Below, piece after piece: positions 9,587 to 26,516 of a stretch of 64,000 nucleotides of DNA. Made by a program: the position numbers and the translations under genes. How positions within the stretch are numbered: position 1 is the first letter of the stretch; every line of letters starts with the position of its first letter. Under the pieces are notes generated by a model. The model saw only the letters and a list, made by a program, of their open reading frames with translations. It ran no database searches and had not been told where the DNA came from. Origin of the DNA: Firmicutes bacterium CAG:882 (GTDB lineage Bacteria; Bacillota; Clostridia; Lachnospirales; Lachnospiraceae); contig FR895425.1 in NCBI GenBank assembly GCA_000435595.1, positions 14,273-78,272 of the forward strand, given 5' to 3'.

Positions 9587-12500
9587 ATGCTTAAGGATAT
9601 GGTTAAGATAGATAAGAGATTTGAAAATTCAATTAATCTCTACCTTGATATAGATAACAGGAATAAGATAGACAGCTATGTGTATACGCGCTCATCGCAG
9701 AACATAATGGACTATTATCTGGACAATATAGATAACGATAGGAATCATGCGACAATGCTCATCGGACCTTACGGCAAGGGCAAGTCACACATGCTTCTGG
9801 TTCTTCTTGATAAGGTGAGAAGTATGGAACATCCATACCTCCCGATAATAATATCCGGCACGGGGGATGACCTCAATCAGGTATTTCTTATAGGACTTAC
9901 CGACGCGCTTAAGAGGGCACGGCTTGAAAAGCTTGCACCTGAGAGCTATTACAGCGAAGCCGCAAGGCGTATCGGGCAGTGGAAATGTGATTTTCCCGAT
10001 GCGTATGATAGATTCAAGGCAGAACTTCATAAGCTTGGCATAGGCAGCGTCGATGATTTTACCAGGGAGCTTGGCAGGCAGTCGAAGAAAGCACTTGGCA
10101 TGTTTGAGCAGATATACCCTGTTATAACAAGCGGCAGTGAATTCAAGCCGTTTCTGATGGTCGAGACGGTGAGAATATATGAGCAGATAAGGGATGTGCT
10201 TGCGAGGGAGTATGGATATTCGGGTCTTTATATTATTTTTGATGAGTTCAGCAAGTACGTCGAGGGGCATGAGAAGGACACATTCGCTAAGGATATGAAG
10301 GTGCTGCAAGATATGTGTGAGCTGGCGGGAAGAAGTGGTGACGGAAGAATATATCTCACCTGCGTTGCACACAAGAGCATCAAGGAGTACGATGCTAAGC
10401 TCTCCGGCGAGATGAAGAACGCATTCAGAGGTGTAGAGGCAAGGCTTGATGAGGTGAGATTTGTTGTTTCCTCACAGAACAATTACGAGCTCATAGGAAA
10501 TGTAATCAGGAAGGACAATAATGCTTTAAAAAGAATCCGTAGAATTGAGCGGTATTACCAAAACGCTATAAAGTCCTATAGCTTTTCATGTTTTTCGGGA
10601 CTTTTTGATGAGGACGATTTCAGAAAGTATGTTGTTGAGGGATGTTTTCCTCTTATGCCTCTCACGGCATACATGCTTTTACATATAAGTGAGAAGGTTG
10701 CACAGAATGAGAGAAGCATATTCACGTATCTGTCGCACGACGAGAAGGGAAGTCTGTGCAGGATAGTGGAGGAGTGTACCCTTGATGAGGCAGATTACGG
10801 TGTCACGGCGGATACAATATATGATTATTTTAAAAGCCTTTTCAGGGCTGACGGCACGGATGCACTCATACACAACGAATGGCTCAAGGCAGAGTATGCA
10901 CTTGAACGTGCAGAGGATGAGGATGAAAAGAAAGTAATCAAGGTTATAGCACTTATAGGCATAATAGACAGACCTGATGAGGTATCGGCGGACATGGAGC
11001 ATATCGCATGCTCCCTCAATATTACTTCAGAGGAATGCAGTGCGATAATGGACAGACTTGTGGAGCGCAAGGCGGTTATTTACCGCAGGAGAAAGCATGC
11101 TTACTGCTTCTATAACAATGTGGGGGTTGACATTCAGGCGGAAATTGCTGGCAGAGCGGCGAAGCTTCCAGCAGATGCGGATATTCTCGGAACATTGAAG
11201 AGCATATCAGAACTTGATTATGTTCTTCCGAAGAAATACAATCAGGATTTTTCGATGACAAGGTACTTTGAGTATGTGTTCATGACACCTGAGCAGATAA
11301 GCAGGCTCCCTAAGCCGTCTGTGCTTTTTGAACAGCGTTTCTCCGACGGAAAAATTGTTGCGGTTGTGTCTGAACAGCCTGTAGAGTACGATGAGCAGCT
11401 TTTTGAAAGACTTAACGATAAGAGAATAGTGGTGCTTGTGCCGCAGATGGTATTCAATCAGACGGACAATATAAGAAAATATATAGCGGCAAGGGAGCTT
11501 ATCAAGGATAAGGCGTTTATCGATGAGAACGCAGTGTTAGAGCAGGAGCTTGTCAATTATTGTGATGATGCAGCTTACGAGGTGAACAGATACTTAGAGG
11601 AGGCATTTGACACAGAAAGCGGAATGTGCCGGGTATATCATGCCAATGAGAAATATGCCGGAGGTTTCAGACATTCAATGACATTTAACATGTTTTTGAG
11701 CAGCATAATGATGGATTATTATGACAATGCGCCTATTGTCAACAACGAGCTTATAAACAGACAGAACATATCTGCACAGAACAAAAAGGCAAGAAATAAG
11801 ATAGTGGATATGATTTTGTCCAATGCTGACTGCTCGGAATTTCTGAAGGGAACATCGCCTGAATCAACCATATATAGGGCTGTCCTTGTTAATACAGGAG
11901 TATGCGGAGGCGGAAATATTGAGTCCGGCTGTGAGCGTGTCATTATGGAAATCGACCGCTTCATTGCACAATGTGATGACAACAGATGCTCATTCAAGGT
12001 TCTGTATGACAGAATTATGGGTATGGGATACGGAACAAGAAAGGGAATAATCCCAATATATATATCACTATGTCTTTCAAGACTGCATGATAAGCCGGTG
12101 CTGAGCTTTAAGGAGAAGGAAGTTGAACTTGACTCGGGCACACTTGGCAATGTAAATGACGCCCCGGGGAACTATTATCTGTATGTGGAGCACAAAAGCA
12201 TAGAGAAGCAGAATTACATTAATGAATTAAAAAAGCTCTTTGGTGCAGGCACCGGGCAGGATGATGACAGAGGTGTTCTTACCGGAATACTCAGATGGTT
12301 CAGGGCTCTGCCGCAGGCGGCATCCAATATAGGAAGGGATGCACGATGTGATGAGAACATGGCGGCTAAGCTTAAGAAGCTGTGCAGTATGCTGAGACGT
12401 CAGGATTACAACCCTCATGATTTCCTTTTTACCGAACTTCCTGCAGGGGTAGGGGCAGACAAGGGAGATTATGTATCGGCGATAGATGAACTCGTCAGGT

Positions 12501-13057
12501 TAAAACAGTTTCTCGACCACTATCTCGAGAATGTTTCATCCGAGGCGGCTTCAATTATAAAGCGCAGATGTGGTGCGGACGAGCAGGACAGCTTGAGAGC
12601 GGTTCTTGACGGTTATAATGCAAGATATACAGGACAGCGTAAGGACATTATTTTAAATCGACGCACACAGTCAATCGTAAGGTACATTTACGGACTGTCT
12701 ACATTCGATGACGCAGAGATTGTGTCGGGATTATCTAAGCTCGTCACGGATATATATATAGATGACTGGCGCGACGGAATGCTTGAGAACTTTAAAAGAG
12801 GCTGGAATGAGTTCTGTGATGAAATCGAGAGTGAACATTCCGCCGGAAGCGGCACCGGGATAGAAAAGCTGCTCCTGGAAGGTCAGGATCAGAACCTGCT
12901 TGACGGCAGTGACACAGACGACAACAGCACAAGCTATTTTTTAAAGAATGCAATAAGGGAAGCAATAGATGAGTTCGGTGACAGCCTTGATACCAAGGAG
13001 AAGGTCGCCGTGCTTGCGAGAGTGCTCGCCGAGCTTGTCGCCGGAGAAAATACATAG
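9587..13057 (+). CDS. sspC: large P-loop ATPase, DUF499/BrxC-like (SspC-like)
   Basis: 1156 aa. Walker A GPYGKGKSHMLL matches the G-x-Y-G-x-GKSH loop of DUF499 ATPases. Lies between the DUF4007 and cysteine desulfurase genes. Confidence 0.6.
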   Translation: MLKDMVKIDKRFENSINLYLDIDNRNKIDSYVYTRSSQNIMDYYLDNIDNDRNHATMLIGPYGKGKSHMLLVLLDKVRSMEHPYLPIIISGTGDDLNQVFLIGLTDALKRARLEKLAPESYYSEAARRIGQWKCDFPDAYDRFKAELHKLGIGSVDDFTRELGRQSKKALGMFEQIYPVITSGSEFKPFLMVETVRIYEQIRDVLAREYGYSGLYIIFDEFSKYVEGHEKDTFAKDMKVLQDMCELAGRSGDGRIYLTCVAHKSIKEYDAKLSGEMKNAFRGVEARLDEVRFVVSSQNNYELIGNVIRKDNNALKRIRRIERYYQNAIKSYSFSCFSGLFDEDDFRKYVVEGCFPLMPLTAYMLLHISEKVAQNERSIFTYLSHDEKGSLCRIVEECTLDEADYGVTADTIYDYFKSLFRADGTDALIHNEWLKAEYALERAEDEDEKKVIKVIALIGIIDRPDEVSADMEHIACSLNITSEECSAIMDRLVERKAVIYRRRKHAYCFYNNVGVDIQAEIAGRAAKLPADADILGTLKSISELDYVLPKKYNQDFSMTRYFEYVFMTPEQISRLPKPSVLFEQRFSDGKIVAVVSEQPVEYDEQLFERLNDKRIVVLVPQMVFNQTDNIRKYIAARELIKDKAFIDENAVLEQELVNYCDDAAYEVNRYLEEAFDTESGMCRVYHANEKYAGGFRHSMTFNMFLSSIMMDYYDNAPIVNNELINRQNISAQNKKARNKIVDMILSNADCSEFLKGTSPESTIYRAVLVNTGVCGGGNIESGCERVIMEIDRFIAQCDDNRCSFKVLYDRIMGMGYGTRKGIIPIYISLCLSRLHDKPVLSFKEKEVELDSGTLGNVNDAPGNYYLYVEHKSIEKQNYINELKKLFGAGTGQDDDRGVLTGILRWFRALPQAASNIGRDARCDENMAAKLKKLCSMLRRQDYNPHDFLFTELPAGVGADKGDYVSAIDELVRLKQFLDHYLENVSSEAASIIKRRCGADEQDSLRAVLDGYNARYTGQRKDIILNRRTQSIVRYIYGLSTFDDAEIVSGLSKLVTDIYIDDWRDGMLENFKRGWNEFCDEIESEHSAGSGTGIEKLLLEGQDQNLLDGSDTDDNSTSYFLKNAIREAIDEFGDSLDTKEKVAVLARVLAELVAGENT

Positions 13058-13073
13058 AATCGGGGAGATACAG

Positions 13074-14231
13074 ATGAGTGTAATTTACCTTGACAATGCA
13101 GCGACCACCTATCCAAAACCGGAGGGTGTCTATGAACAGATGGATAAAGTCAACCGCAGTCTGGCGTTTAACGCCGGACGTGGTTCTTATGCTCTGGCGC
13201 AGCAGTCGGCAGTTATCATTGACAATCTCAGAAGAGAATTATTGCGCATTGCGAATGCGATGAATGTAGCAGAGGTCGTACTGTCGGCTTCTGCTACATT
13301 TGCATTGAATCAGATAATCGGCGGACTGGGTATGAGGGCGGAGCAGTATGTGTATATATCGCCTTATGAGCACAATGCCGTTGTTAGAACACTTTACAAT
13401 CAAAAAATATACAGAGATGAAGAGAACTGCACGCATATTATTGTCATGCCTCTTCTGCCGGACGGGGGAATCAATGAGGAAAGGCTTCTGTACGAATTCA
13501 GCATACACACACCATCGTTCGTGTTCATGAGCAATGTGAGCAATGTAACCGGTTACATCCTTCCTGTGGAGAGGATTGCGTCCGCAGCCAAGGCATACGG
13601 TGCCACCGTTGTCGTAGACGGCTCACAGGCATTAGGCCTTGTTCCTTTTGACATGTCGGCATCAGACGTGGATTTCTATGTGTTTGCCGGACACAAGACA
13701 CCTTACGGTCCGTTCGGAATCGGCGGTTTCTATATGAAAAACGGAAGGAACCTCGACACATTCATAGCAGGCGGCACAGGAACAGATTCTCTCAATGTCG
13801 GCATGCCGCTCGCGGGTACGGTACGTTATGAACCGGCAAGCCCGAATGTCATAGCGGCAGCAGGGCTGCTTGCCGCTGTAAAAGAACTCACGACAGATGA
13901 GATAGCACACCGCCTGGAGCATGAGAAGAAACTTACTGAATATCTTGTAAACGGAATGCGCAAGATACCGGGCATCAGGCTGTATCTTGCGCCTGCACAG
14001 TCGCATGTCGGAATAGTCGCTTTCAATCTTGCGGGCTACAAGGCCTCCGACATCGGAATGATTCTCGATGCGGATTACAATATTGCGGTTCGCACAGGCT
14101 ACCACTGTGCTCCGCTTATACATGAATATTTGGACGACAGAGAATACCTTGGAGTTGTGAGAGCAAGCATAAGCATGTTCACGGGTTATGATGAAGCGGA
14201 TGCGCTGGTCGAGGCACTGGGGGAGATTTAG
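13074..14231 (+). CDS. sspA: cysteine desulfurase (class V aminotransferase, SspA/DndA/IscS-like)
   Basis: MSVIYLDNAATTYP N-terminus and PLP-lysine region FAGHKTPYGPFGIGG. GGGGAG RBS before the ATG at 13074. The ORF track starts earlier, at 12969, inside the sspC 3' end. Confidence 0.8.
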   Translation: MSVIYLDNAATTYPKPEGVYEQMDKVNRSLAFNAGRGSYALAQQSAVIIDNLRRELLRIANAMNVAEVVLSASATFALNQIIGGLGMRAEQYVYISPYEHNAVVRTLYNQKIYRDEENCTHIIVMPLLPDGGINEERLLYEFSIHTPSFVFMSNVSNVTGYILPVERIASAAKAYGATVVVDGSQALGLVPFDMSASDVDFYVFAGHKTPYGPFGIGGFYMKNGRNLDTFIAGGTGTDSLNVGMPLAGTVRYEPASPNVIAAAGLLAAVKELTTDEIAHRLEHEKKLTEYLVNGMRKIPGIRLYLAPAQSHVGIVAFNLAGYKASDIGMILDADYNIAVRTGYHCAPLIHEYLDDREYLGVVRASISMFTGYDEADALVEALGEI

Positions 14232-14243
14232 GAGGATGAGAAG

Positions 14244-16535
14244 ATGGATTTAAAGTTTGCAGAGATAAGAAATATTAATCAGTTATGCAATTTAGAAAGT
14301 AAAGGAAATAACAATGAAAATGTACCGCTGAATGTAAATATTCCATATTACCAGAGACCATACAAATGGGATAATACAAGAATTGGTAATCTAATTACAG
14401 ACTTTTATGATAATGAAGAAAATGAGAATGAAGATGAGGGATATTTTGCTGGTTCGGTTGTTATGGTTAAAGGAGAAAGCGGAAGATTTGAGGTTATTGA
14501 CGGGCAGCAGAGAATCACGACACTTTTTTTAATGAATTATCTGAGATTTTTGCTTATTAGAGGATATATTGAGCTGATAATAAAAACCAAAAAAATGTCT
14601 AAAATCAAGACACAAATTGATGAGCTTATTGATACAGCGGTTAATTTGTTTGATAAGGAAAAAATTATAAAATTACGTAATGTAAGCAGTGGAATAGATA
14701 ATTATATCAGCGATATTGAAAATGATGGACATGATGCTGAAAAAAAGGACAGCATATGGGATGCATTACTTGAATATTACGAGAAAGAATTAGGTTTGCC
14801 AAAGAGAAATTTTACTAATATTGAAAGTTATAAAAGGGAATGTTATCTGGAAAACAAGAAATTTCTGGCGAATGTAGGACTGACACTAAGGTACAGTAGA
14901 AACAGTTACAATGAAAAGCTTAAAGAAGCTTTATGCAGAGCTGTAATACTAATGCAGAGTGATGATATCAATCCGTGTTTTACAATGTGTTGTTTTGAGA
15001 AAAATTCAGTGTTTAAGAGTGTAGTAACAGAACAATATATGAATGCTATGAAATATATATATGATAATATTGTCACCGCATATATAGTCGGTGAAGAAAA
15101 ACCGGTTGAGTATATTGTAAAGCTAGAAAATGCAATGAAAAATATATTGGATAATATTAATTTTTGCGTTGTGGTTACGGGCAGAGAAAAGGATGCATAT
15201 ACATTATTTGAGGTATTAAATGATAGAAATTTCCCGGTTGAAGATTTGGAATTAATTAAGAATCTTTTTTACAAATATTACTGTAAAAATAGCGAAAACA
15301 ATGATAACACGGATTATTTCATTGAAAAGGCGGATACAAAATGGGGGGAAATATTTAGTGACACAATAGGCAAGGAACAGTCAAAACTTATTTCATATCT
15401 TGCTGCACAATATTTTACAGCGGATGGAAGACTCAAGTACAATGATAATGAGAGATATAGGGAGGCAATAGAAAAACAATACCTGAACAGAAAACAGCGA
15501 TATGATGGAGAAGCATTGTTAAGTGATATATGTGTTTATGAAATGCTTGAAATTATATTAGATGAATTTGATTTTAAATATCAGAAAAAAGCTGAAAATG
15601 TCATAAAAGCAGAGAGAGAAAATTCAAAATCAATTACATACAAAGCGTTAAATTTGTTCAATGCACTTAAATTGTACGGAGTAATACCTGCAATTACCAA
15701 TATTATACTTAAGAAGTTTTTGGAAAAAAATCCTATTAACAGATGGACTGGTGGGGATTATATTACTGCATTTAGAAAGTATGTACAGGAAATAAGGGAT
15801 GACAGAGAAAATAACAATACAGATTTTGCGGAGATTCACAGTGTAGCTTATGATTTCTGGCGTTTTGCACTGCTTGCACAAAATTCGGACAAACCAAGAA
15901 ATATAGCAAAAGACTATATCTCGAAAAATTATGTATCAAATTCTGACTATTCTTTAAAAGTCACAAGTCAGGAAGCAGATGTGTTGAATGAAGAGTTCAG
16001 AAGATGGATTAACGCATGGAAATATGGAAATGAAATTTCCCAGCTGAAGGTTAAAGTACTTTTTATTAATTTATTTAATTCAACTAAAGAGGGAAATACA
16101 CTTATATTCAACAAAACCGGCACAAATTTTAAAACGGATAAAATACAGCTTGATCATTTAGAGCCGGATAAAACCAATGCAGTTGCAAGTGAAAAGTATT
16201 TTGAACCTTCATCTAAGCTGCCAAGAGAAACATATACCGATAGTCTCGGTAATTTCATGATTATGGATGCAGGCAGTAACAATGACAAGAACACAATTCC
16301 GTTGCAGGATGCTCTTGAAATTTATGATAATATGGCTGGTGGTCATTGGCTGATAAAAGAAATTCATGACCTGTTTTATGAGAATGAATGTGGTGTAGAT
16401 AAGAACATTGATGGAAAAAAATACAGAATTCCGAATGAAGAATTTTTCATCAGAAGAAAAAAGAGATTGATATGTTATTTTAAGGCTATTTTGACTAAAA
16501 AGCTTGGCGATAATAAGGTGGAATTTGAACAGTAA
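14244..16535 (+). CDS. sspE: DUF262 (ParB-like NTPase, DGQQR motif) plus C-terminal DUF1524/HNH-like nuclease; SspE-like PT-sensing restriction protein
   Basis: RFEVIDGQQRITTLFL in the N-terminal domain. C-terminal QLDHLEPDK His-Me finger-like motif. 763 aa. Directly follows sspA. About 28-30% GC. Confidence 0.75.
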   Translation: MDLKFAEIRNINQLCNLESKGNNNENVPLNVNIPYYQRPYKWDNTRIGNLITDFYDNEENENEDEGYFAGSVVMVKGESGRFEVIDGQQRITTLFLMNYLRFLLIRGYIELIIKTKKMSKIKTQIDELIDTAVNLFDKEKIIKLRNVSSGIDNYISDIENDGHDAEKKDSIWDALLEYYEKELGLPKRNFTNIESYKRECYLENKKFLANVGLTLRYSRNSYNEKLKEALCRAVILMQSDDINPCFTMCCFEKNSVFKSVVTEQYMNAMKYIYDNIVTAYIVGEEKPVEYIVKLENAMKNILDNINFCVVVTGREKDAYTLFEVLNDRNFPVEDLELIKNLFYKYYCKNSENNDNTDYFIEKADTKWGEIFSDTIGKEQSKLISYLAAQYFTADGRLKYNDNERYREAIEKQYLNRKQRYDGEALLSDICVYEMLEIILDEFDFKYQKKAENVIKAERENSKSITYKALNLFNALKLYGVIPAITNIILKKFLEKNPINRWTGGDYITAFRKYVQEIRDDRENNNTDFAEIHSVAYDFWRFALLAQNSDKPRNIAKDYISKNYVSNSDYSLKVTSQEADVLNEEFRRWINAWKYGNEISQLKVKVLFINLFNSTKEGNTLIFNKTGTNFKTDKIQLDHLEPDKTNAVASEKYFEPSSKLPRETYTDSLGNFMIMDAGSNNDKNTIPLQDALEIYDNMAGGHWLIKEIHDLFYENECGVDKNIDGKKYRIPNEEFFIRRKKRLICYFKAILTKKLGDNKVEFEQ

Positions 16536-16556
16536 TTAAAAAAGGAGGCAGTGTAA

Positions 16557-16707
16557 TGCAAAAACCCGACGAAAGATTATTGAAGACCGTCATGTTTGAA
16601 ATACTTCATCTTGAACGGAAAAATCTCAGAAGCAGAGCAATGACGGATCAGAAAATGGTGGAGGAGATTGGGAAGGTTATCTCGGAGAATATTAAGCTAT
16701 GTAAATA
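16557..16707 (+). CDS. small hypothetical protein (50 aa) coupled to the downstream ATPase
   Basis: Strong RBS AAGGAGG 7 nt before the ATG at 16557. TAA stop abuts the next ORF. Not in the ORF track because it is under 60 aa. Confidence 0.4.
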
Positions 16708-16728
16708 ATGGAGGCGGAGAGGGTACGA

Positions 16729-18768
16729 ATGAAGTTTAAAACACTCAGAATGAAGAATTTTATGCGTTATAAAGGAATAAATGAGATTAATTTCAGTTGT
16801 GACGAAACGCATAATGTTACGGTGATATTGGGGGATAACACTGTAGGAAAAACAACGATTGCTCAGGCGTTTAGATGGTGTCTGTATGGTGCGATTATGG
16901 CTGAACGCGGAAAGAAAGAATCAGATTATCAGCTTCTGAACAATGATGCGCTTGCAAAACTGGATGCCAATAAGAAAGCTTCTGTTTTTGTGGAGATAAT
17001 AGCCGTGGATAGCGAAAGGCTGTATACCATCCATCGTGAAGTTGAATATATGAGGGTGTATCCTAAGTTCATTGCAAAAGAGTCATACAAGACATTGAAA
17101 ATGTTTATTTCAGATATAGACAGTCCTGATATCAGGCGTGAGGTGGAGCCCGGACCTAATTACAATAAGATAAATGAGCTTATAAATGAACTGTTTCCTA
17201 AAAATCTTTCACATTATTTTCTGTTTGATGGTGAGAGATGGAGTGATTTTTCGATAAATGGTGTCAGGGAGAACATTAAAGAATCAGTACATATTTTAAC
17301 CGGACTTTCTGCCTACAAGTCCGCCATGTATCATCTGAAGGATATGGGAGACAATTCAGTTATAAAAAAGTTCAGAAAAAATATTCAGGGAAAAGGCAAT
17401 GTGTATGATGATTATGAGCGTGAGCAGACCAGACTTGAACGTGAAGTGGAAAAATTACAGAAACAGATAGAAAGTATCGATGCCAATATCAGTCTTTGCA
17501 ATAAAAAATGCGATGAGATAGAGTTATATCTTGAGGAAAACAAGGATACGGAACAACTGCAGACGGCATATAAACAGTCTCAGAGAATGCTGAGGGCACA
17601 GGGGGAGAGATACTTAGCCAACTATAAAACTTTTATTTCGGAATACAATTCATGTGCATACAGACTGTTCGCCGGACCGCTTATCGAGGCTTCATTAAAA
17701 ATGGTCAAATCTGTGGCAGGTGAGCGCAGGGATATTCCACACATGAGGCAGGCGAGCATTGATTATATAATCAGAAGCGGAAGATGCATCTGCGGGACAC
17801 CGATAACGGAGGGGTCGTATGCTCTCGAATGCCTGCTCGAACAGAGAAATTATCTTCCGCCTGCCGATATGGGTTCTCTGCTCGGAGAATTTGAAAAGAC
17901 CGCTAACCGATGGAAAAGGGTTGATGACGAACTGCCAGACGATGCGGCAAGGGTTGATGAGAGCGCAAGGGATTATGAGGAGACAATCATTCAGCTTCAG
18001 AAAATGGAAAATAAGATGAATGAGAATATCGATTTTGCAGAGAAGAGAGCACAACTTAGGAGATATAAGGATGAAGCAAACAAGGCTGCAGTGAAAAAAG
18101 GTGAGATAAAGGGACTCATATCATCATATCAGACTCGAATACAGAGTATAGAACTCCAGATGAAGAATCAGGAAATAAAGAATGCCGAAAATGAAAAATG
18201 GAGAAACAAGCTGGGGCTTGCGGAGGCTGTATACGATAAATTATCAGCGGATTTTTCGGAGCGGGAGAAAAAGATATTTTACGAATTGAATGAAGAAATT
18301 CAGGCGAATTTTTCGCGTATGTTCAATGCGAAAGATAAAAGAATCCGGCTCTCGGAAAACTATGAAATTCAGATGTGCTATAAGACCGACATAGGCTATC
18401 AGGAAGAAAAGAACCTGTCGGAAGGAGAAAAGGTAGCAAGAAATTTTGCATTTATTGTGACAATAATGGATTACAGCACACGAAAGAAGAATGAGTATAA
18501 TAAAGCTGACTCAATCGTTGAGGATAAGGATGATGATTGCAATGATGCGCTTCCTATTGTGCTTGATGGACCATTCTCAAAACTCGGCGAGGAAAATATC
18601 TCTCTGGTGGCAAATGTGCTTCCGAAGGTATCGGAGCAGGTCATAGTATTTATGCTCAGAAAAGACTGGGCGTACACGGGACTTGATGAGTATGTCGGAG
18701 CGGAGTACTCGATTGACAAAAATCCTGAAGAAAGCTTTGCGTCGATAAGAAAGGTGGACAGAGGCTGA
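16729..18768 (+). CDS. SMC/DndD-like ABC ATPase (AAA_23 N-terminal head, coiled-coil middle, C-terminal head)
   Basis: N-terminus MKFKTLRMKNFMRYKGINEINF...ILGDNTVGKTTIAQAFRWCLYG (Walker A). Long charged coiled-coil middle. C-terminal LPIVLDGPFSKL (Walker B/D-loop). 679 aa, like DndD. Confidence 0.7.
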   Translation: MKFKTLRMKNFMRYKGINEINFSCDETHNVTVILGDNTVGKTTIAQAFRWCLYGAIMAERGKKESDYQLLNNDALAKLDANKKASVFVEIIAVDSERLYTIHREVEYMRVYPKFIAKESYKTLKMFISDIDSPDIRREVEPGPNYNKINELINELFPKNLSHYFLFDGERWSDFSINGVRENIKESVHILTGLSAYKSAMYHLKDMGDNSVIKKFRKNIQGKGNVYDDYEREQTRLEREVEKLQKQIESIDANISLCNKKCDEIELYLEENKDTEQLQTAYKQSQRMLRAQGERYLANYKTFISEYNSCAYRLFAGPLIEASLKMVKSVAGERRDIPHMRQASIDYIIRSGRCICGTPITEGSYALECLLEQRNYLPPADMGSLLGEFEKTANRWKRVDDELPDDAARVDESARDYEETIIQLQKMENKMNENIDFAEKRAQLRRYKDEANKAAVKKGEIKGLISSYQTRIQSIELQMKNQEIKNAENEKWRNKLGLAEAVYDKLSADFSEREKKIFYELNEEIQANFSRMFNAKDKRIRLSENYEIQMCYKTDIGYQEEKNLSEGEKVARNFAFIVTIMDYSTRKKNEYNKADSIVEDKDDDCNDALPIVLDGPFSKLGEENISLVANVLPKVSEQVIVFMLRKDWAYTGLDEYVGAEYSIDKNPEESFASIRKVDRG

Positions 18769-19289
18769 TGGCTGATTTTGAATTTTTTAAAAAGCAGTTT
18801 GAATTTAAAGGAAAGCACTCAAGAATGGTGTCTGAACTTTGTGTTGCTAATGATTTTGAGCATACATTTTTTAGAAGGATTATTGACGTGTATGTATTTG
18901 CAGCAATAATAGGTATCCGTCTTGACAGAAAAGCTTCGGAAGATTATTCACCGGTGGAGACAAAAAGTATTTTTCCGGAGCAGATGATAAATGCCAAGGA
19001 AGACTTGGATTTCATAATGCAGATGATGATAATGTTAGATTCGGGTCCGGGAACTACTGCTGAGGACAGAGTAAGGGAAGCCTTTAGAGGTGCACAGACT
19101 AAGGAAGAGTATGACAGGCTGATGGGAATTTTCAATGACTATGTGAGAGGTGGAGTTGAAGAACTTTACGAAAGACTTGTTGTCAGAAAGCCTGATTCGG
19201 ATGGCGGATACTACGACGAAAGAACCGCTAATCTTATGGCGCTTTATGATAGGCTTGTTCCGAGGAATATTTCAAAAATCACAAAATAA
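18768..19289 (+). CDS. hypothetical protein (173 aa), translationally coupled to the DndD-like ATPase
   Basis: TGATG stop/start overlap with the upstream gene. No motif I can recognise. Predicted mostly helical. Confidence 0.5.
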   Translation: MADFEFFKKQFEFKGKHSRMVSELCVANDFEHTFFRRIIDVYVFAAIIGIRLDRKASEDYSPVETKSIFPEQMINAKEDLDFIMQMMIMLDSGPGTTAEDRVREAFRGAQTKEEYDRLMGIFNDYVRGGVEELYERLVVRKPDSDGGYYDERTANLMALYDRLVPRNISKITK

Positions 19290-19328
19290 TGCTTTACTTT
19301 TTTAAATATGTGGGGTATAATAAACATA

Positions 19329-19445
19329 CGTTATATCATACCAAGCGATAAACGGTTACAACAATAAGGTCCCGCCGCTGGCGGTGTACCTCAAAGCTCT
19401 AATCCCACTTAAAGTGAATACTTTAAGTGGGATTATCTATTTTAA
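19329..19445 (+). ncRNA. tracrRNA: tracrRNA (anti-repeat, nexus-like hairpin, terminal hairpin, T-run)
   Basis: ttatatcataccaagcgataaacggttacaacaa is 31 of 34 identical to the CRISPR repeat on the same strand. It is followed by taaggtcccgccgctggcggtgtacc (hairpin) and aatcccacttaaagtgaatactttaagtgggatt (hairpin), then ctatttt. TATAAT at 19316-19321 sits about 8 nt upstream. Confidence 0.7.
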
Positions 19446-19634
19446 ACAGAATTATTATTAAAGCGAACAGAATAATGATATCCAATCCCTTATTGGTTTT
19501 GACTCAAAAGGAAATTCTGCTATTTTGCAGGAAAATATATGAGTCATAATATTGCTTGGTATTAAATGATTTAATGAATTATTTAATCTGATAACCGTTT
19601 GACTTGATAAGGTTTTGGAGGAAGGGATTATATT

Positions 19635-22600
19635 ATGGAGGAAATGAAGCAGACAGGCAGAAAAAATGAAGCACCTAAGCTGACGGATTTGAATTACAGA
19701 ATTGGGCTTGATATTGGTATTGCTTCTGTAGGCTGGGCGGTGCTTGAGAACAACTCTCATGACGAGCCGTTCAGGATTATTGATTTGGGTGTCAGAATTT
19801 TTGATACCGCAGAGCAGCCTAAGACGGGTGCATCACTAGCACTTCCAAGGAGGGAAGCACGTTCAGCAAGAAGGAGAATAAGAAGGCGCAGGGACAGGAT
19901 AGAACGCATCAAGAAGCTTTTTCAGGCTGAAGGGCTTATAAATATCGATGAGTTTGAGGCTCGTTACAAAATAGCAGGACTTTCTGATGTTTACAAGCTG
20001 AGATATGAGGGGCTTGACAGGAAGCTTACAGATGATGAACTGGCACAGGTATTATTACATATTGCAAAGCACAGAGGATTTAAGTCGACAAGCAAGGCAG
20101 AAGAAGCGGAAAACGAAAATGACGCAGCAAAGAAAAAAGAAGCAGGGGCTTTAAAGAAGGGTATAAGCAATAATAAAAAGCTTATGGAAGAAAAAGGATA
20201 CAGGACGGTTGGAGAAATGATGTATCTTGATGAAAACTTCCGTACAGATTGTCCATGGAATGAAAATGGCTACATACTTACACCTCGCAATAAGTCCGGC
20301 GATTATAAGCATACCGTTTTAAGAGATATGCTTGTAGATGAAGTAAGAGAGATATTTAAGTCTCAGAGAAGTCTTGGAAATATTCACGCTTCCGAAGAAC
20401 TTGAGAATGCATATCTTGATATTATGCTCAGCCAGCGTTCATTTGATATGGGACCGGGTGCTCCGAGCAAGTATGCGATGGAGGGATTTGAGGACAGAGT
20501 AGGATTATGTACCTTTGAAGGTAAGAATGGTGAGAAGCGTGCAGCAAAGGCAGCATATACCTCAGAACTTTTTGTGGCATTGGAGAAGATAAATCACACC
20601 AAGATTGTGAGTGATGATGGAGCCACAAGATTTTTGACGACGTATGAACGCAAGAGCATTATTGAACTTATGCATAAGCAGCAGACTGTAAAGTATGCGG
20701 CAGTGCGTAAGGCGATTGGCTTAGCGGAGGAGGACAAATTCTACAACCTTAACTACAGTCCGAAGGCTGGAAGCAAAAAGTCTCCTGAAGATACAGATTT
20801 TGTTAAACTTGAAAACTATCATAAGATACGCAAGGCTCTTGGAGAAGACATAGTTTCAGAACATTTACCTGCTGAAAAGATAAAGCTGTATGACAGTATT
20901 GCAACTATACTTACACTGTTCAAGAATGATGACAGCCGAATTAAGAGATTTATCGAACTGGGGATTGGTGAGGAATGCTTTGACGGGCTCCTTTCATTAT
21001 CACCAAGCAAATTTCATAACCTTTCTCTGGTTGCAATGGGGAAGATAATTCCGTTTTTGCTTGATGGCAACACCTATGACAAGGCATGCGAACTCGCAGG
21101 GTATGATTTTAAGGCAGATAATAAAGGCGAGAAGTCTGTTCTGCTGAAAGGAAAAAATATAACGGATATGGTGAATGATATTACCAATCCGGTTGTGAGA
21201 CGTTCTGTATCTCAGACAATAAAGGTTATAAATGCAATTATACTTGAGTATGGAAGTCCGCAGGCGGTTAATATTGAGCTTGCAAGGGAAATGTCAAAGA
21301 ACTTTGATGAAAGACGAAAGCTCAAGTCTGATATGGAATCACGCGAAAAAGAAAACAATAATGTCATAAAGCGTGTAAAAGAATATAAGCTGAATCCAAC
21401 AGGTCAGGATATAGTTAAGTTCCGCCTCTGGGAGGAGCAGGACAGAAGATGCTTATATTCAGGTGAGAAGATTGATATAAATGACCTTTTTTCAAGAGAT
21501 GGCGGTTATGACGTTGACCACATTCTTCCGTACAGCATCACATTTGATGATACATATCGCAATAAAGTACTTGTAAAAGCATCTGAGAACAGGCAGAAGG
21601 GAAACAGAACACCTTATGAGTATTTTATGGCTGAGAAGGATGATGATGAATGGAATGTTTACGAGACTTTGGTTCGAAATACAGTCAAAGATTATAAGAA
21701 GGTGCTCAAGTTACTCAAGAAACATATAACAGAGGATGAAAAGAGCGAATTTAGGGAGCGAAATCTTACTGATACAAAATATATTACCAGAATCATCTAC
21801 AATATGATACGTCAGAACCTTGTGTTAAAACCATATCTTAGTCTTGAAAAAGAACGCAAGAAACAGGTCATGGCTGTAAATGGTTCCATAACACACTATC
21901 TCAGTAAGAGATGGGGACTTGAAAGCAAGGATAGACGTACAGACACACATCACGCACAGGATGCAGTTGTCATCGCCTGTACAACTGATGGAATGATAAA
22001 TAAAATATCGCGATATTCCAAGGGACGAGAGCTACTTTATTCAAGAGGCTTTAAGTTTGTAGATGAAGAAACAGGGGAAATACTTTCGCGCGATAATTTT
22101 ACCCGTGAGGAGTGGGACGAGAAGTACGGGGTGAAAATCCCTATACCGTGGGAACATTTCAGGGATGAGCTTGATATCCGTATGTCAAGGTACAACGGAA
22201 CAGGTGATGACTCAATCGACAAAACAACGCCGAGGGATTTTATTTTGTCACACAGGGATGCGCACAAATGGATAAATTACCCTGAGTGGATGTTTGTCGA
22301 AGGAAGACCGGGACGTAGAGGAGTGCTCGACGGAATTTTTGTTTCCAGAATGCCGAAGCATAAAGTGAGTGGTCAGGCACATGAGGAGACGGTTCGCTCG
22401 GCGAAGTATTATAATGATGGTGGCAGTGTATTTGAGAGTGGTGGATATGTAGTTACCAAAAAATCAATTCAGGACATCAAGCTAAAAGACGGGGAGATAA
22501 AGGAGTTCTTCAATCCGGACAGCGACAGATTACTTTATAACGCTTTGGTTGACAGACTTAATAAATTTGAAAACGATCCAAAGAAGGCTTTCGCGGAGCC

Positions 22601-23162
22601 ATTCTATAAGCCAAAGGCGGATGGCACTCAGGGACCTATCGTCAAAAAAATCAAGGTGTTCGAGAAGCAGTCATCAGGAGTGTTTGTCAGAGATGGAAAG
22701 GGTATAGCAGCAAACGGTGCAATGGTTAGAATTGATGTATTCTGTGAAGAAGATAAGGGCAAAAAGAAGTACTATTTTGTACCGATCTATACAGCGGATG
22801 TTGTAAAGAAAAAACTGCCTGACCGTGCTGCAACAGCCAACAAGCTTATATCTGAATGGCGTGTGATGAAGGAAGAAAATTTTATTTTTAGTCTGTATTC
22901 AAGGGACTTGATTTATATTGAGAGTGATAAGGGAGTACAGGTTAAAGATATAGATGGTAAAATCAGTAAACCAGTTAATTTATTTGCATATTATTTGGGA
23001 GCAGATACATCTACAGCGAGCATTTCGGGTAAATTGCATGATAGTAGTGCTAATTTTAGAAGCATTGGTATTCAGGGGCTGAGGCGATTTGATAAATGTC
23101 AGGTAGATGTATTGGGAAATATTTCATTTGTGAATAAGGAAAAACGTATGCCGTTTAATTAA
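19635..23162 (+). CDS. cas9: Cas9, type II-C
   Basis: RuvC-I IGLDIGIASVGWAV. Arg-rich bridge helix RREARSARRRIRRRRDRIERIKKLF. HNH DVDHILPYS...NKVLVKASENRQKGNRTPYEY. RuvC-III HHAQDAVVIACTT. 1175 aa. Confidence 0.95.
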   Translation: MEEMKQTGRKNEAPKLTDLNYRIGLDIGIASVGWAVLENNSHDEPFRIIDLGVRIFDTAEQPKTGASLALPRREARSARRRIRRRRDRIERIKKLFQAEGLINIDEFEARYKIAGLSDVYKLRYEGLDRKLTDDELAQVLLHIAKHRGFKSTSKAEEAENENDAAKKKEAGALKKGISNNKKLMEEKGYRTVGEMMYLDENFRTDCPWNENGYILTPRNKSGDYKHTVLRDMLVDEVREIFKSQRSLGNIHASEELENAYLDIMLSQRSFDMGPGAPSKYAMEGFEDRVGLCTFEGKNGEKRAAKAAYTSELFVALEKINHTKIVSDDGATRFLTTYERKSIIELMHKQQTVKYAAVRKAIGLAEEDKFYNLNYSPKAGSKKSPEDTDFVKLENYHKIRKALGEDIVSEHLPAEKIKLYDSIATILTLFKNDDSRIKRFIELGIGEECFDGLLSLSPSKFHNLSLVAMGKIIPFLLDGNTYDKACELAGYDFKADNKGEKSVLLKGKNITDMVNDITNPVVRRSVSQTIKVINAIILEYGSPQAVNIELAREMSKNFDERRKLKSDMESREKENNNVIKRVKEYKLNPTGQDIVKFRLWEEQDRRCLYSGEKIDINDLFSRDGGYDVDHILPYSITFDDTYRNKVLVKASENRQKGNRTPYEYFMAEKDDDEWNVYETLVRNTVKDYKKVLKLLKKHITEDEKSEFRERNLTDTKYITRIIYNMIRQNLVLKPYLSLEKERKKQVMAVNGSITHYLSKRWGLESKDRRTDTHHAQDAVVIACTTDGMINKISRYSKGRELLYSRGFKFVDEETGEILSRDNFTREEWDEKYGVKIPIPWEHFRDELDIRMSRYNGTGDDSIDKTTPRDFILSHRDAHKWINYPEWMFVEGRPGRRGVLDGIFVSRMPKHKVSGQAHEETVRSAKYYNDGGSVFESGGYVVTKKSIQDIKLKDGEIKEFFNPDSDRLLYNALVDRLNKFENDPKKAFAEPFYKPKADGTQGPIVKKIKVFEKQSSGVFVRDGKGIAANGAMVRIDVFCEEDKGKKKYYFVPIYTADVVKKKLPDRAATANKLISEWRVMKEENFIFSLYSRDLIYIESDKGVQVKDIDGKISKPVNLFAYYLGADTSTASISGKLHDSSANFRSIGIQGLRRFDKCQVDVLGNISFVNKEKRMPFN

Positions 23163-23177
23163 ATTAAGGAGAAGTGT

Positions 23178-24080
23178 ATGGGATACCGCAACATAAAAAT
23201 AGATAGTTCTATAGGATTACATATAAAAAATGAACAATTAGTTATAGGCGATAAGAATATCAGTTTTCCTTTAGAAGATATTAATTGTGTCATTATAGAA
23301 AATCAATCTGTTACGGTATCCACATATATGCTTCAAGAGTTTGCAAAATATGGAATCGCATTATATGTATGCGATGAGAAACATTTACCTAATGCTGTGC
23401 TTCTGCCTATGGTAAAGCATAGCAGGCATTTTAGAATGCTTACCAAACAGATTGAGGTGGGAAAGCCTCTTATTAAGCGGCTGTGGCAGCAGGTTATTGT
23501 TTTTAAAATAAGAAATCAGGCATTGTGTCTTAAAGAGCTTGGACTTGATGGGCATGAAAAACTTCTTTCAATGACAAAAGAAGTGCAGTCGGGTGACAAG
23601 ACACATGTTGAGGCGAAAGCTGCGGCATATTATTTTCGTGTTTTATATGGTGAAAACTTTACCAGATCAGATGAAAGTATTGTAAATTCGGCGATGAATT
23701 ATGCTTATGCGATAATCAGAGGTCTGATTGCAAGGTCAATCGTGTGCTATGGTCTGGAGCCTTCATTGGGGATGTTCCATCACAGCGAATTAAACAGTTA
23801 TAATCTGGCAGATGATATGATTGAAGTATTCAGACCACTGGTTGATTTGTACGTGGCAAGTCATTTTGATATTTCAGAGGTTGATGCGGATTTAACCCCT
23901 CAGATAAAAAGAGATTTGTTTAATATTATTAACTATGATATGTCGGTGAAAGGAGAGAAACGCATTATCAGCAACTGTATTGAGATGCTTGTGTACAGCT
24001 ATAGTGGAGCCATTCAGGGAAACAGAACAGATTTGGAACTTCCCGAATTGATACCGTTGCAGGTGCATAGCTATGAATAA
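23178..24080 (+). CDS. cas1: Cas1
   Basis: 300 aa type II Cas1 directly downstream of cas9. Conserved acidic and histidine residues in the C-terminal half. Confidence 0.9.
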   Translation: MGYRNIKIDSSIGLHIKNEQLVIGDKNISFPLEDINCVIIENQSVTVSTYMLQEFAKYGIALYVCDEKHLPNAVLLPMVKHSRHFRMLTKQIEVGKPLIKRLWQQVIVFKIRNQALCLKELGLDGHEKLLSMTKEVQSGDKTHVEAKAAAYYFRVLYGENFTRSDESIVNSAMNYAYAIIRGLIARSIVCYGLEPSLGMFHHSELNSYNLADDMIEVFRPLVDLYVASHFDISEVDADLTPQIKRDLFNIINYDMSVKGEKRIISNCIEMLVYSYSGAIQGNRTDLELPELIPLQVHSYE

Positions 24081-24393
24081 ATTTATGAGATTGTTGGTGT
24101 TTTTTGATTTACCTGTTGTTAAGGACAGAGATAGAAAAGTTGCTGCTAAATTTCGCAGATTTCTTCTGAAAGATGGATATGTTATGGTTCAGTGGTCAGT
24201 ATATTCGAGACTTTGCAATGGTACGGATTCTATCGAGACTCATAAGCAAAGATTAAAGCAGAATTTACCGCATAAGGGGTCTGTGCGTTGCCTTGTATTG
24301 ACGGAAAAACAATATTCGTCCATAGATATTCTTTTAGGAACGTCTACATTTCATGATATGGATGAATCATCTGATTTAATAAATATTTTTTGA
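24073..24393 (+). CDS. cas2: Cas2
   Basis: 106 aa. Overlaps cas1 by 8 nt. MNKFMRLLVFFDLP N-terminus typical of Cas2. Confidence 0.9.
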   Translation: MNKFMRLLVFFDLPVVKDRDRKVAAKFRRFLLKDGYVMVQWSVYSRLCNGTDSIETHKQRLKQNLPHKGSVRCLVLTEKQYSSIDILLGTSTFHDMDESSDLINIF

Positions 24394-24446
24394 AAAAAGA
24401 GTATTATGCAATGTGAAAATTAGGATTAACAATTATTTTTTACATG

Positions 24447-24486
24447 AAAAATCCCCGTGAACATATATAAACACGGGGATTTTTCG
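24447..24486. terminator. bidirectional hairpin terminator between cas2 and the CRISPR array
   Basis: aaaaatccccgtg...cacggggattttt, a symmetric A/T-flanked GC-rich stem. Confidence 0.6.
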
Positions 24487-24490
24487 TTCC

Positions 24491-24592
24491 CTATTATATC
24501 ATACCAAGCGATAACCGGGAACAACAACATATGAGGAATTAGAGGAACAGGGCAGACTATTATATCATACCAAGCGATAACCGGGAACAACA
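24491..24592. CRISPR. minimal CRISPR array: two 36-bp repeats, one 30-bp spacer
   Basis: Repeat ctattatatcataccaagcgataaccgggaacaaca at 24491-24526 and again at 24557-24592. Spacer acatatgaggaattagaggaacagggcaga at 24527-24556. On the minus strand each repeat carries the extended -10 TGaTATAAT, which implies antisense (minus-strand) crRNA transcription. Confidence 0.8.
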
Positions 24593-24725
24593 CGACAAGA
24601 GACCCTTTTGTGAAAGATTAGTTTACATTTTTGTTGTAAATCTTTTTTTTTTGTATTAGAATAAAATAGATGTAAAAATATAGTAAAGAAGAATATAAGA
24701 AAACAAGAAATGAGGACGTTTTGTT

Positions 24726-26516
24726 ATGGATGCTGTATCAGTAACGCTGTTGTGCCTTGGGCTGTTTAGCGGAATTGCACTTTTCCTGTATGGAATGAGT
24801 GTGATGGGTGACGGTCTTAAGAAGGTTGCGGGAAATAAGCTTGAGACGCTTTTGTACGGGTTGACAAGCACACCGATTAAGGGAATTTTGCTGGGTGCAG
24901 GTGTTACGGCTATTATTCAGTCATCATCGGCTACTTCGGTTATGGTAGTCGGCTTCGTTAATTCGGGTATGATGAAGGTTATACAGGGAATTGGTATTAT
25001 TATGGGTGCCAATATCGGAACAAGTATAACCGGATGGATTTTGTGTCTTTCGGATATTCAGGGAGCGGGTGGTATAGCAGCTCTTTTGTCATCGTCGAGT
25101 ATAGCGGCAATTGTAGCTATAATTGGTCTGCTTGTGAGAAATCTTTCAAAGAAGGAGTCTCATAAGGCAGTCGGTGATATCATGTTTGGATTTACGATAC
25201 TTATGATAGGTATGTCAACCATGAAGGAGGCGATGTCTCCGCTTCAGAACAATCCTTTTTTTATGGGAATGCTTACGAAGTTTTCCAATCCGTTTCTTGG
25301 TATTCTTTTAGGTATAGTTATCACGGCAGTGCTTCAGAGCGCATCGGCATCCATAGGTATTCTACAGTCGGTTGCAATGTCGGGATTTCTGCCTTTTTCG
25401 GCGGCACTGCCTATAGTCATGGGTATTGGTGTCGGGGCGGCATGTCCGGTTCTCATGAGTGGTATGAGTTCTAACAAGAACGGTAAGAGAACAGCACTTG
25501 TGTATCTTTTTAATGATTTGTTCGGAATGATTATATGCGGAACTCTTTTTTACACAATTCAGGCGATTGTGACAAGAGGAGGTCAGTTCGCATTTATGGA
25601 TGTTGAGATGAATTCTGTCTCAATAGCCCTTCTCAATACTGTATATCGAGTTGTCACAATCGTGATACTCGCACCGTTCATCAAGCAGATTAATAAGCTT
25701 ATGTTCTGGCTTGTAAAGGACACCGAGGATGAGGTTGAGGATCAGGCAGACTTTGACCTGCTTGAGGAGCGTTTCTTAAGAAACCCTGAACTTGCACTTA
25801 CTCAGGTAGGTGTTGTAATGAACGGAATGGCAAGAAAGGCACAAAAGAATGTCATGAGGGCATTTGACCTTATGGATGATTATTCTGTTGAGAAGTACAA
25901 TATCATTCAGGAAAAAGAGACAATCATCGATAAATATGAGGACAAGCTTGACACATATATGATGAAGATTACGGCTGTGGGACTTAACAAGAGCCAGACA
26001 GTGCAGAACTCCAAGTATCTCCATACAGTCAGTGATTTTGAACGTATTGCTGATCACGCCTGCGGTATATCGAGGGCAGCCAAGGAAATCGTGGAGAAAA
26101 AGATTAAGTTTTCCGATGATGCGCGGCGGGAGCTTGCAATTCTGTACAGTGCTGTTAAGGAAGAACTGGATATGACTGTTAAGTCATTTACTGAGGATGA
26201 TATAGATATGGCAAGACAGGTGGAGCCGCTTAGAATCACAGTGAGAATGTTATGTGCAGAGCTTAAGCGAAACCACATTACTCGTCTTCAGAGCGGTAAC
26301 TGTGATGCAATCAATGGATTTGTTTTTAATGATCTTTTGACGAATCTGGAGAGAATTGTTGCGCATTGCTCCAACGTAGCCGTTGCCATGATGGAGTTTG
26401 AATCGGATGATTTCAACACCCACCAGTATCTGAAGGAGCTCAGAGATTCAGAGGATTCCGGTATTGTAAAGGATGTCAACTATTATTCTGAAAAGTATTC
26501 GGTGGATAAGAAATAA
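24726..26516 (+). CDS. Na/Pi cotransporter family protein (NptA-like with C-terminal PhoU-like domain)
   Basis: GAGVTAIIQSSSATSVMVVGFVNSGMM repeat motif of Na/Pi cotransporter II. 596 aa. Confidence 0.75.
   Translation: MDAVSVTLLCLGLFSGIALFLYGMSVMGDGLKKVAGNKLETLLYGLTSTPIKGILLGAGVTAIIQSSSATSVMVVGFVNSGMMKVIQGIGIIMGANIGTSITGWILCLSDIQGAGGIAALLSSSSIAAIVAIIGLLVRNLSKKESHKAVGDIMFGFTILMIGMSTMKEAMSPLQNNPFFMGMLTKFSNPFLGILLGIVITAVLQSASASIGILQSVAMSGFLPFSAALPIVMGIGVGAACPVLMSGMSSNKNGKRTALVYLFNDLFGMIICGTLFYTIQAIVTRGGQFAFMDVEMNSVSIALLNTVYRVVTIVILAPFIKQINKLMFWLVKDTEDEVEDQADFDLLEERFLRNPELALTQVGVVMNGMARKAQKNVMRAFDLMDDYSVEKYNIIQEKETIIDKYEDKLDTYMMKITAVGLNKSQTVQNSKYLHTVSDFERIADHACGISRAAKEIVEKKIKFSDDARRELAILYSAVKEELDMTVKSFTEDDIDMARQVEPLRITVRMLCAELKRNHITRLQSGNCDAINGFVFNDLLTNLERIVAHCSNVAVAMMEFESDDFNTHQYLKELRDSEDSGIVKDVNYYSEKYSVDKK

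Follow-up and report, generated by a model that had tools for sequence, protein, structure and literature searches.

A probable plus-strand tracrRNA gene upstream of cas9 in a type II-C CRISPR-Cas locus of Firmicutes bacterium CAG:882

A CRISPR-Cas9 locus was annotated in a 64,000-nucleotide (nt) stretch of Firmicutes bacterium CAG:882 (contig FR895425.1, positions 14,273 to 78,272), which is referred to here as the window and whose own numbering is used throughout. Judging from the sequence, the site upstream of cas9 is very probably the trans-activating CRISPR RNA (tracrRNA) gene of a type II-C locus, laid out in the order tracrRNA, cas9, cas1, cas2 and a short array. The cas9 gene (19635-23162, plus strand) encodes a type II-C like protein of 1175 amino acids (aa) with a TIGR01865 match of E = 1e-246, and both the RuvC aspartate and the HNH histidine are present. 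It is followed on the same strand by cas1 (23178-24080; TIGR03639, E = 5e-83), which belongs to the type II (NMENI) class, and by cas2 (24073-24393; TIGR01573, E = 3e-23). All three genes are intact, and neither csn2 nor cas4 was found at the locus. The cas9-cas1-cas2 operon, the compact Cas9 and the type II-C membership of its best structural relatives together assign the gene set to type II-C, the closest solved structure being AtCas9 (21dz/9wac) with E = 5e-263. The locus is flanked by Ssp/Pbe-type genes and by a Na/Pi transporter gene.

The predicted tracrRNA occupies 19328-19443 on the plus strand (about 116 nt) and ends 190 nt before cas9; its start is placed 7-9 nt past a -10 box and its end at a U-run. 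The promoter (19293-19321, plus strand) consists of a -35 hexamer TTTACT at 19293-19298, a 17-nt spacer and a -10 hexamer TATAAT at 19316-19321, and matches ten of the twelve consensus positions in a promoter scan. The end of the -10 box lies 8-9 nt before a 36-nt anti-repeat (19330-19365, plus strand) that has the same sense as the array repeats. An AAGG motif (19366-19369) comes next and overlaps a nexus-like first 3' hairpin at 19367-19391, the two together spanning 19366-19391 on the plus strand. The last element is an intrinsic terminator found by a terminator scan (19400-19443, plus strand), in which a 16-bp hairpin (19400-19435) precedes UCUAUUUU. The 3' half of the tracrRNA has a folding energy of -34.9 kcal/mol, with z = -7.0 against shuffles, and both the promoter and the terminator were predicted in the plus orientation only. 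An earlier note, made from the sequence without database searches, had described a TATAAT box 8 nt upstream of the anti-repeat and an AAGG-containing hairpin after it, both of which were recovered here. It had given the second hairpin 14 bp rather than 16; this hairpin is followed by UCUAUUUU. The interval it had marked ran to 19634, whereas the tracrRNA ends near 19443 and the remainder, 19444-19634, is a distinct spacer region that has its own conserved blocks.

Related loci, numbered with an L prefix, were gathered from genomes, metagenomes and assemblies. Their Cas9 proteins have 41-99% identity to that of the window, and the distant relatives include L005 (57%), L006 (49%) and L007 (41%). 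A 15-nt tracr pattern was found at 120 loci in metagenomes, of which four (L021, L027, L074 and L091) have a real tracrRNA and the rest are chance matches. Both promoter hexamers of the window are unchanged among close relatives. The element ACAAUAAGG is nearly invariant in an alignment of 13 tracr sequences, with L005 and L133 as the exceptions, where it reads ACAGUAAGG.

Three exact occurrences of the pattern TTATATCATACCAAGCGATAANCGGNNACAACA were found in the 64-kb window, all on the plus strand, at 19331-19363, 24494-24526 and 24560-24592, whereas shuffles gave an expectation of zero matches. The boundaries of the 36-nt repeat were taken from relatives with long arrays. When the anti-repeat was searched with up to three mismatches it retrieved itself alone, as an end position is the fourth difference, and a degenerate pattern was used instead; this search revealed no second anti-repeat elsewhere in the window. 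The near-identical, same-strand copy with three mismatches at a bulge described in the earlier note was thus confirmed, with the addition that over the full 36-nt span the first and last positions form G·U pairs. In this register the anti-repeat and the minus-sense repeat make 31 Watson-Crick pairs, two G·U pairs and three mismatches, and the three internal mismatches occupy identical bulge positions across all close relatives.

Co-folding of the crRNA (CRISPR RNA):tracrRNA duplex, which the earlier note had proposed as a check, predicted -47.6 kcal/mol and a canonical geometry, in which a 2x2 loop separates the 8-bp lower stem (with one G·U) from a 3-bp helix and a small loop separates the latter from a helix of 21 bp. 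The architecture envisaged earlier, with a 7-bp lower stem, an internal loop and an upper stem of more than 20 bp, is essentially right; it omitted the 3-bp middle segment, and the lower stem is computed at 8 bp. In L005, L006 and L007 the anti-repeat varies together with the repeat and the duplex geometry is preserved.

The array was identified by a direct-repeat search and contains two repeats of 36 nt and one spacer; it was missed by Tandem Repeats Finder because there are only two repeats. All three parts are read here on the minus strand. Repeat 1 (24493-24528), on the cas2 or leader side, reads GTTGTTGTTCCCGGTTATCGCTTGGTATGATATAAT in the crRNA sense and is followed by the sole spacer (24529-24558, 30 nt) and the distal repeat 2 (24559-24594), a terminal variant that starts with CG instead of GT in the crRNA sense. 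The minus-sense repeat begins with GTTGTTGTT and ends with TGATATAAT, an extended -10 box that is found at 24567-24559 and 24501-24493. TATAAT forms the 3' end of the minus-sense repeat in all ten loci compared, and TGnTATAAT in nine of them, despite divergence of the repeat body. The nine loci with TG read either TGATATAAT or TGGTATAAT, and the remaining one, L006, has TAATATAAT, that is, TATAAT without TG. By its sequence, the box at the end of the repeat corresponds to the repeat-embedded promoter of type II-C systems, an assignment based on direct reading and conservation.

A GC-rich hairpin at 24446-24485 (GAAAAATCCCCGTG / CACGGGGATTTTTC) stands between cas2 and the array. It is a 14-bp inverted repeat with 100% complementarity and T-runs on either side, and all relatives keep it, along with the junction GTTCCCT (24486-24492) beside repeat 1. 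Plus-strand read-through into the array is therefore unlikely. The hairpin is probably a two-way terminator serving both the cas operon and the crRNA transcripts, and 24446-24492 probably also acts as the acquisition leader, which, as in N. meningitidis, would lie where transcription leaves the array, downstream of it.

A sigma-70-type promoter was observed a few nucleotides 5' of the anti-repeat, on the cas9 strand, in every inspected relative with upstream DNA on the contig. The promoters of L005, L006 and L007 have different sequences and are well placed, at the same distance from the anti-repeat. The anti-repeat, AAGG motif and terminator also keep their place and strand in relatives across the whole range of Cas9 identity. 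In the alignment of 13 sequences, 94.6% of the cells in the tracr hairpins are paired, compared to 37-44% in controls with a slid register. Nine hairpin pairs have changed on both sides, a number reached by none of 500 shuffles; three of these compensatory pairs are in the AAGG/nexus-like helix and six in the terminator, which in addition shows U·G/C-G alternation.

These observations bear on whether 19330-19365 might be a silent relic, namely a degenerate orphan repeat left by a rearrangement and not expressed. Its shared sense with the array repeats would fit such an origin, and tracrRNAs have been proposed to descend from degenerate repeats (Chylinski et al., PMC3737331). We regard this explanation as extremely unlikely, since the promoter, AAGG hairpin and terminator have been conserved with compensatory changes down to the most distant relatives, the internal mismatches stay at the same bulge positions in all close relatives, and cas9 is intact while the window holds no other anti-repeat that could serve it.

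Several points weigh against the assignment of a plus-strand tracrRNA gene. Both hairpins of the window are perfectly Watson-Crick paired and fold equally on either strand, therefore the choice of strand rests on the promoter and terminator, on the relatives and on the polarity of the repeats. An Rfam scan of 18500-25500, with E values up to 10, returned chance-level matches and no tracrRNA; the Rfam tracrRNA model is, as we understand it, based on the Streptococcus type, and a miss would then say little on function. The generic promoter scan left the promoters inside the repeats unflagged, because it requires a match to a -35 box. Expression of the tracrRNA is something we infer from its sequence features. 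Finally, it is unproven that the locus is at present active in immunity, as there is one spacer and its protospacer was not found: there was no exact match to the spacer in viral contigs, and the best match in phage records covers 24 of 34 nt with E = 0.4. A 15-nt match to the spacer in L032 has no extension and was set aside as chance.

The equal folding of the hairpins on the minus strand, along with a weak minus-strand promoter-like site at 19344-19317, is what could be cited for the opposite polarity, in which plus-strand transcription of the cas operon would simply continue through the array and the tracrRNA would come from the minus strand of 19330-19445. In such an RNA the hairpins would stand 5' of the anti-repeat, with no U-run following the hairpins, and the conserved promoters in all relatives point in the plus direction. 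Thirteen hairpin cells that are G·U on the plus strand become A·C mismatches on the other strand, so that pairing falls from 94.6% to 90.7%. A similar asymmetry was found in the repeat:anti-repeat duplexes of ten loci, which contain 26 G·U wobbles with a minus-sense crRNA versus five with a plus-sense one. Reading the array from the cas operon would also require passage through the terminator-like hairpin between cas2 and the array, and the repeats would then begin with ATTATA and end with the complement of GTTGTT, unlike any known type II repeat. The opposite polarity is thus very unlikely, and a plus-strand tracrRNA with a minus-strand crRNA is supported by the sequence evidence. The minus-strand origin of the crRNA, which the earlier note had deduced from the sense of the anti-repeat, agrees with the promoters of the relatives, the covariation, the G·U asymmetry, the TATAAT ends of the repeats and the hairpin between cas2 and the array.

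For the tracrRNA gene so oriented, we infer the transcription starts, processing, Cas9 loading and Cas9 activity as follows. Its own sigma-70 promoter would produce a plus-strand RNA of about 116 nt that starts 1-3 nt 5' of the anti-repeat, carries the AAGG/nexus hairpin and has its 3' end at the 16-bp intrinsic terminator. The array would be transcribed from the minus strand, toward cas2, with no leader promoter, and driven by the TGATATAAT that ends each repeat. Only the distal repeat has a spacer and a repeat downstream, and the -10 box of repeat 2 (24567-24559) would drive the sole crRNA, whereas that of repeat 1 would fire into the leader only and make no guide. Transcription may begin near 24553 (minus strand), at the sixth or seventh nucleotide of the spacer, so that the guide would have about 24 nt and lead into repeat 1; this start is estimated from how far the -10 box lies and from the precedent in N. 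meningitidis. The predicted crRNA is therefore about 24 nt of spacer plus GUUGUUGUUCCCGGUUAUCGCUUGG..., and its transcript would cross the 7-nt junction (24486-24492) and enter the hairpin that lies at 24485-24446. Repeat 1 would pair with the anti-repeat to form the lower stem, internal loop and upper stem, and the duplex would be loaded into Cas9, with trimming by RNase III optional, as in N. meningitidis.

The spacer region between the tracrRNA and cas9 (19444-19634) is an insertion relative to L002, L135, L139 and L140, in which the cas9 ATG comes only 14-20 nt after the tracr U-run (5983-6003 in L002 and 2483-2503 in L135). From this short gap it follows that the cas9-cas1-cas2 genes of these four loci are probably expressed by read-through from the tracrRNA promoter, with the tracrRNA as the 5' leader of the mRNA. 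The same may be asked of the window, where the tracrRNA promoter could also drive cas9-cas1-cas2, the tracrRNA forming the 5' leader of the operon and the 16-bp hairpin an attenuator. This would be compatible with the tracrRNA assignment. In its favour are the four short-spacer loci, which have no space for a separate promoter, and the terminator tail of the window, UCUAUUUU, which is interrupted. The 16-bp hairpin is however a strong terminator, and the 190-nt spacer contains a candidate promoter of its own, TTGACT-16-TGcTATTTT at 19499-19526, although the -10 box of this candidate is mutated in the near-identical L136. Overall, we consider read-through in the window possible but rather unlikely.

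Three conserved blocks were observed wherever the insertion is present. Block A (19454-19489, plus strand) is an AT-rich hairpin or palindrome, ATTATT-AAAGCGAACAG-AATAAT (19454-19476), followed by ATCCAATCCC. Its columns are invariant in eight lineages and it is missing at the loci with a 14-20 nt spacer. At one position its stem alters on both sides together, as ATTATT/AATAAT versus TTTATT/AATAAA, and the block could be an operator or an RNA element. Block C (19610-19634, plus strand) is the ribosome-binding region of cas9 (GGTTTTGGAGGAAGGGA...) and likewise consists of invariant columns. Several lineages have minimum-energy folds that allow its UUGGA to pair with UCCAA of block A; no covariation was seen between the two, as neither side varies.

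Block B (19548-19571, plus strand) is a half-repeat in the crRNA sense with the core TATTGCTTGG at 19550-19559, and its complement is the central part of the tracr anti-repeat, as seen in the inverted repeats I6, I7 and I14. The core AT(C/T)GCTTGG, which equals the centre of the repeat in the crRNA sense, is found in all six long-spacer lineages, while in the window and L001 the likeness covers the 3' half of the repeat. The best predicted duplex between tracrRNA and spacer region falls on block B in five of the six lineages (z = -2.5 to -4.4). A second piece, TAACCGTTT at 19583-19600, matches the lower-stem side of the anti-repeat. Two readings of these pieces were rejected. The segments 19550-19570 and 19583-19600 do not form a simple inverted copy of the anti-repeat, as their order is wrong for one antiparallel helix. 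A role of block B as a repeat-derived -10 box for cas9 is unsupported, its hexamer being AATGAT in the window, TATGAT in L001 and unconserved in L004 and L074.

Block B could be a half-repeat relic or a pairing site for the tracrRNA. In the latter case 19444-19634 might have a regulatory function and make the expression of cas9 depend on free tracrRNA, a proposal that we consider quite unlikely. Block B would then pair with the anti-repeat in trans or, on a read-through transcript, in cis, and RNase III or Cas9 could bind the cas9 leader at the site so formed. The hairpin at 19454-19476 and the segment UCCAAUCC, which can pair with the ribosome-binding region, share this stretch with block B. 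Were the proposal true, Cas9 output would track the balance of crRNA and tracrRNA, which would matter most with zero or one spacer. A partial parallel is offered by the long-form tracrRNA of S. pyogenes and the scaRNA of F. novicida, cited in PMC12477760 as cases with a repeat-like or anti-repeat-pairing segment near cas9 and with regulation of genes, the cas operon included, by Cas9 together with tracrRNA. A paper on the scaRNA of N. meningitidis (PMC13431127), consulted for an analogue of block B, yielded nothing usable about its location or repeat content. Block B is likewise repeat-like, complementary to the anti-repeat and just upstream of cas9. It differs in that it contains only the 3' (upper-stem) half of the repeat and lies 3' rather than 5' of the tracrRNA; its role is putative, and a guide-like promoter match was not identified for it.

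The size of the array varies among strains that have the same or a 99%-identical Cas9, with zero, one or at least nine spacers. A lone repeat with no spacer was found in L128 (8860-8895) and L130, and also in L134, which has a divergent Cas9, while the array of L129 (8862-9476) has at least nine spacers. The lone repeat bears the distal 'ACG' end, which fits a collapse through recombination between repeats. The array of L140 (7350-7440) also has two repeats, the second of them badly degenerate (ATTATACCATACCAAGCGATTATTAGG...), so minimal arrays recur in the clade. Lone-repeat and short arrays are the natural counterparts of the N. meningitidis states that trigger 'super-adaptation' by apoCas9 (PMC12477760).

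Among otherwise near-identical strains only cas9 was observed to be hypervariable. L134 and L136 have 51-90% nucleotide identity to the window across exactly the cas9 open reading frame (19635-23120). Their upstream flank (17135-19534), which includes the PbeC-like gene, the dnd-associated gene, the tracrRNA and the spacer region, has 97-100% identity, and the downstream flank with cas1-cas2 (about 23110-24300) has 92-98%, where cas1 alone gives 97-98% in L134 and 92-98% in L136. The Cas9 proteins are 60-65% identical, falling to 31-47% in aa 1058-1153, which is likely the region that interacts with the protospacer adjacent motif. The tracrRNA and repeats are identical, therefore very different Cas9 alleles share one guide scaffold. 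Across the clade, tracrRNA identity stays at 86-100% while Cas9 identity drops to 63-84%. The Cas9 variants of N. meningitidis show similar variability, whereas the divergence in L134 and L136 spans most of the gene.

Upstream of the tracrRNA gene, at 9587-19289, is a DNA phosphorothioation defence cluster of the Ssp/Pbe type. It comprises an SspC-like ATPase (9587-13057), an SspA/DndA cysteine desulfurase (12969-14231), a GmrSD/SspE-like protein (14244-16535), a PbeC/DndD-like ATPase (16708-18768) and a homologue of dnd-associated protein 4 (18768-19289). The last two genes adjoin the tracr-cas9 region in relatives down to 57% Cas9 identity.

The practical use of the annotation is in the reliable design of guide RNAs, with crRNA polarity, tracrRNA ends and duplex geometry, for a Cas9 clade that is uncharacterised and comes from uncultured members of the Clostridia and Lachnospiraceae, most likely of the gut. 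It also shows that the polarity of a type II-C system can be called correctly from sequence alone. Knowledge of how type II-C systems work is left unchanged. Better leads are given by the divergent Cas9 alleles that share one guide scaffold, and by the lone-repeat and single-spacer arrays, which match stages of 'array neogenesis' in N. meningitidis.

Among known systems, C. cellulolyticum H10 is close in its organization. There the tracrRNA is encoded upstream of a cas9-cas1-cas2 operon that has the array downstream, small-RNA sequencing found the array to be transcribed opposite to the cas genes, and the repeat ends in nine nucleotides that look like an extended -10 box (PMC7038990). The window has the same gene layout, array polarity and -10 box at the end of the repeat, and its host is also a member of the Clostridia. 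It differs in having a single spacer and a 190-nt region with conserved blocks between the tracrRNA and cas9. The likeness is drawn from layout and not from Cas9 or tracrRNA sequences, and CcCas9 is not among the closest solved-structure matches of the window Cas9. The nearest solved relative, AtCas9 of Alicyclobacillus tengchongensis, is a type II-C protein that aligns over nearly its full length with the same domain order; they are clearly different proteins, with many substitutions and an alignment broken by a gap into two segments, and the likeness concerns Cas9 alone, not the guide RNA.

In N. meningitidis, C. jejuni and F. novicida, RNA sequencing showed that the arrays are transcribed opposite to the cas operon, which leaves the mutated terminal repeat at the unexpected end of the array (Chylinski et al., PMC3737331). 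In N. meningitidis and C. jejuni every repeat contains a promoter from which a crRNA is made, with its start some 6 nt inside the spacer (PMC5965381; PMC12477760); these systems were described by Zhang et al. 2013 and Dugar et al. 2013 and are reviewed in PMC5965381. The window shares with these two species the opposite transcription of the array, the repeat-embedded promoters and the three-gene cas operon, whereas their hosts are Proteobacteria and Nme1Cas9 (6jdq) is a distant match (E = 1.5e-182). The N. meningitidis tracrRNA presumably also reads ...CUACAAUAAGG... after its anti-repeat, and we take it to be located elsewhere in its locus, not directly upstream of cas9. The type II-C locus of B. 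fragilis has the same face-to-face arrangement in stranded gut metatranscriptomes (PMC4911918). An antisense array with a tracrRNA upstream of cas9 is therefore the standard type II-C architecture. The antisense crRNA biogenesis put forward in the earlier note is correct, and the significance attached to it was overrated, as this is the documented norm for type II-C (PMC3737331, PMC7038990, PMC5965381); the inference is right but ordinary.

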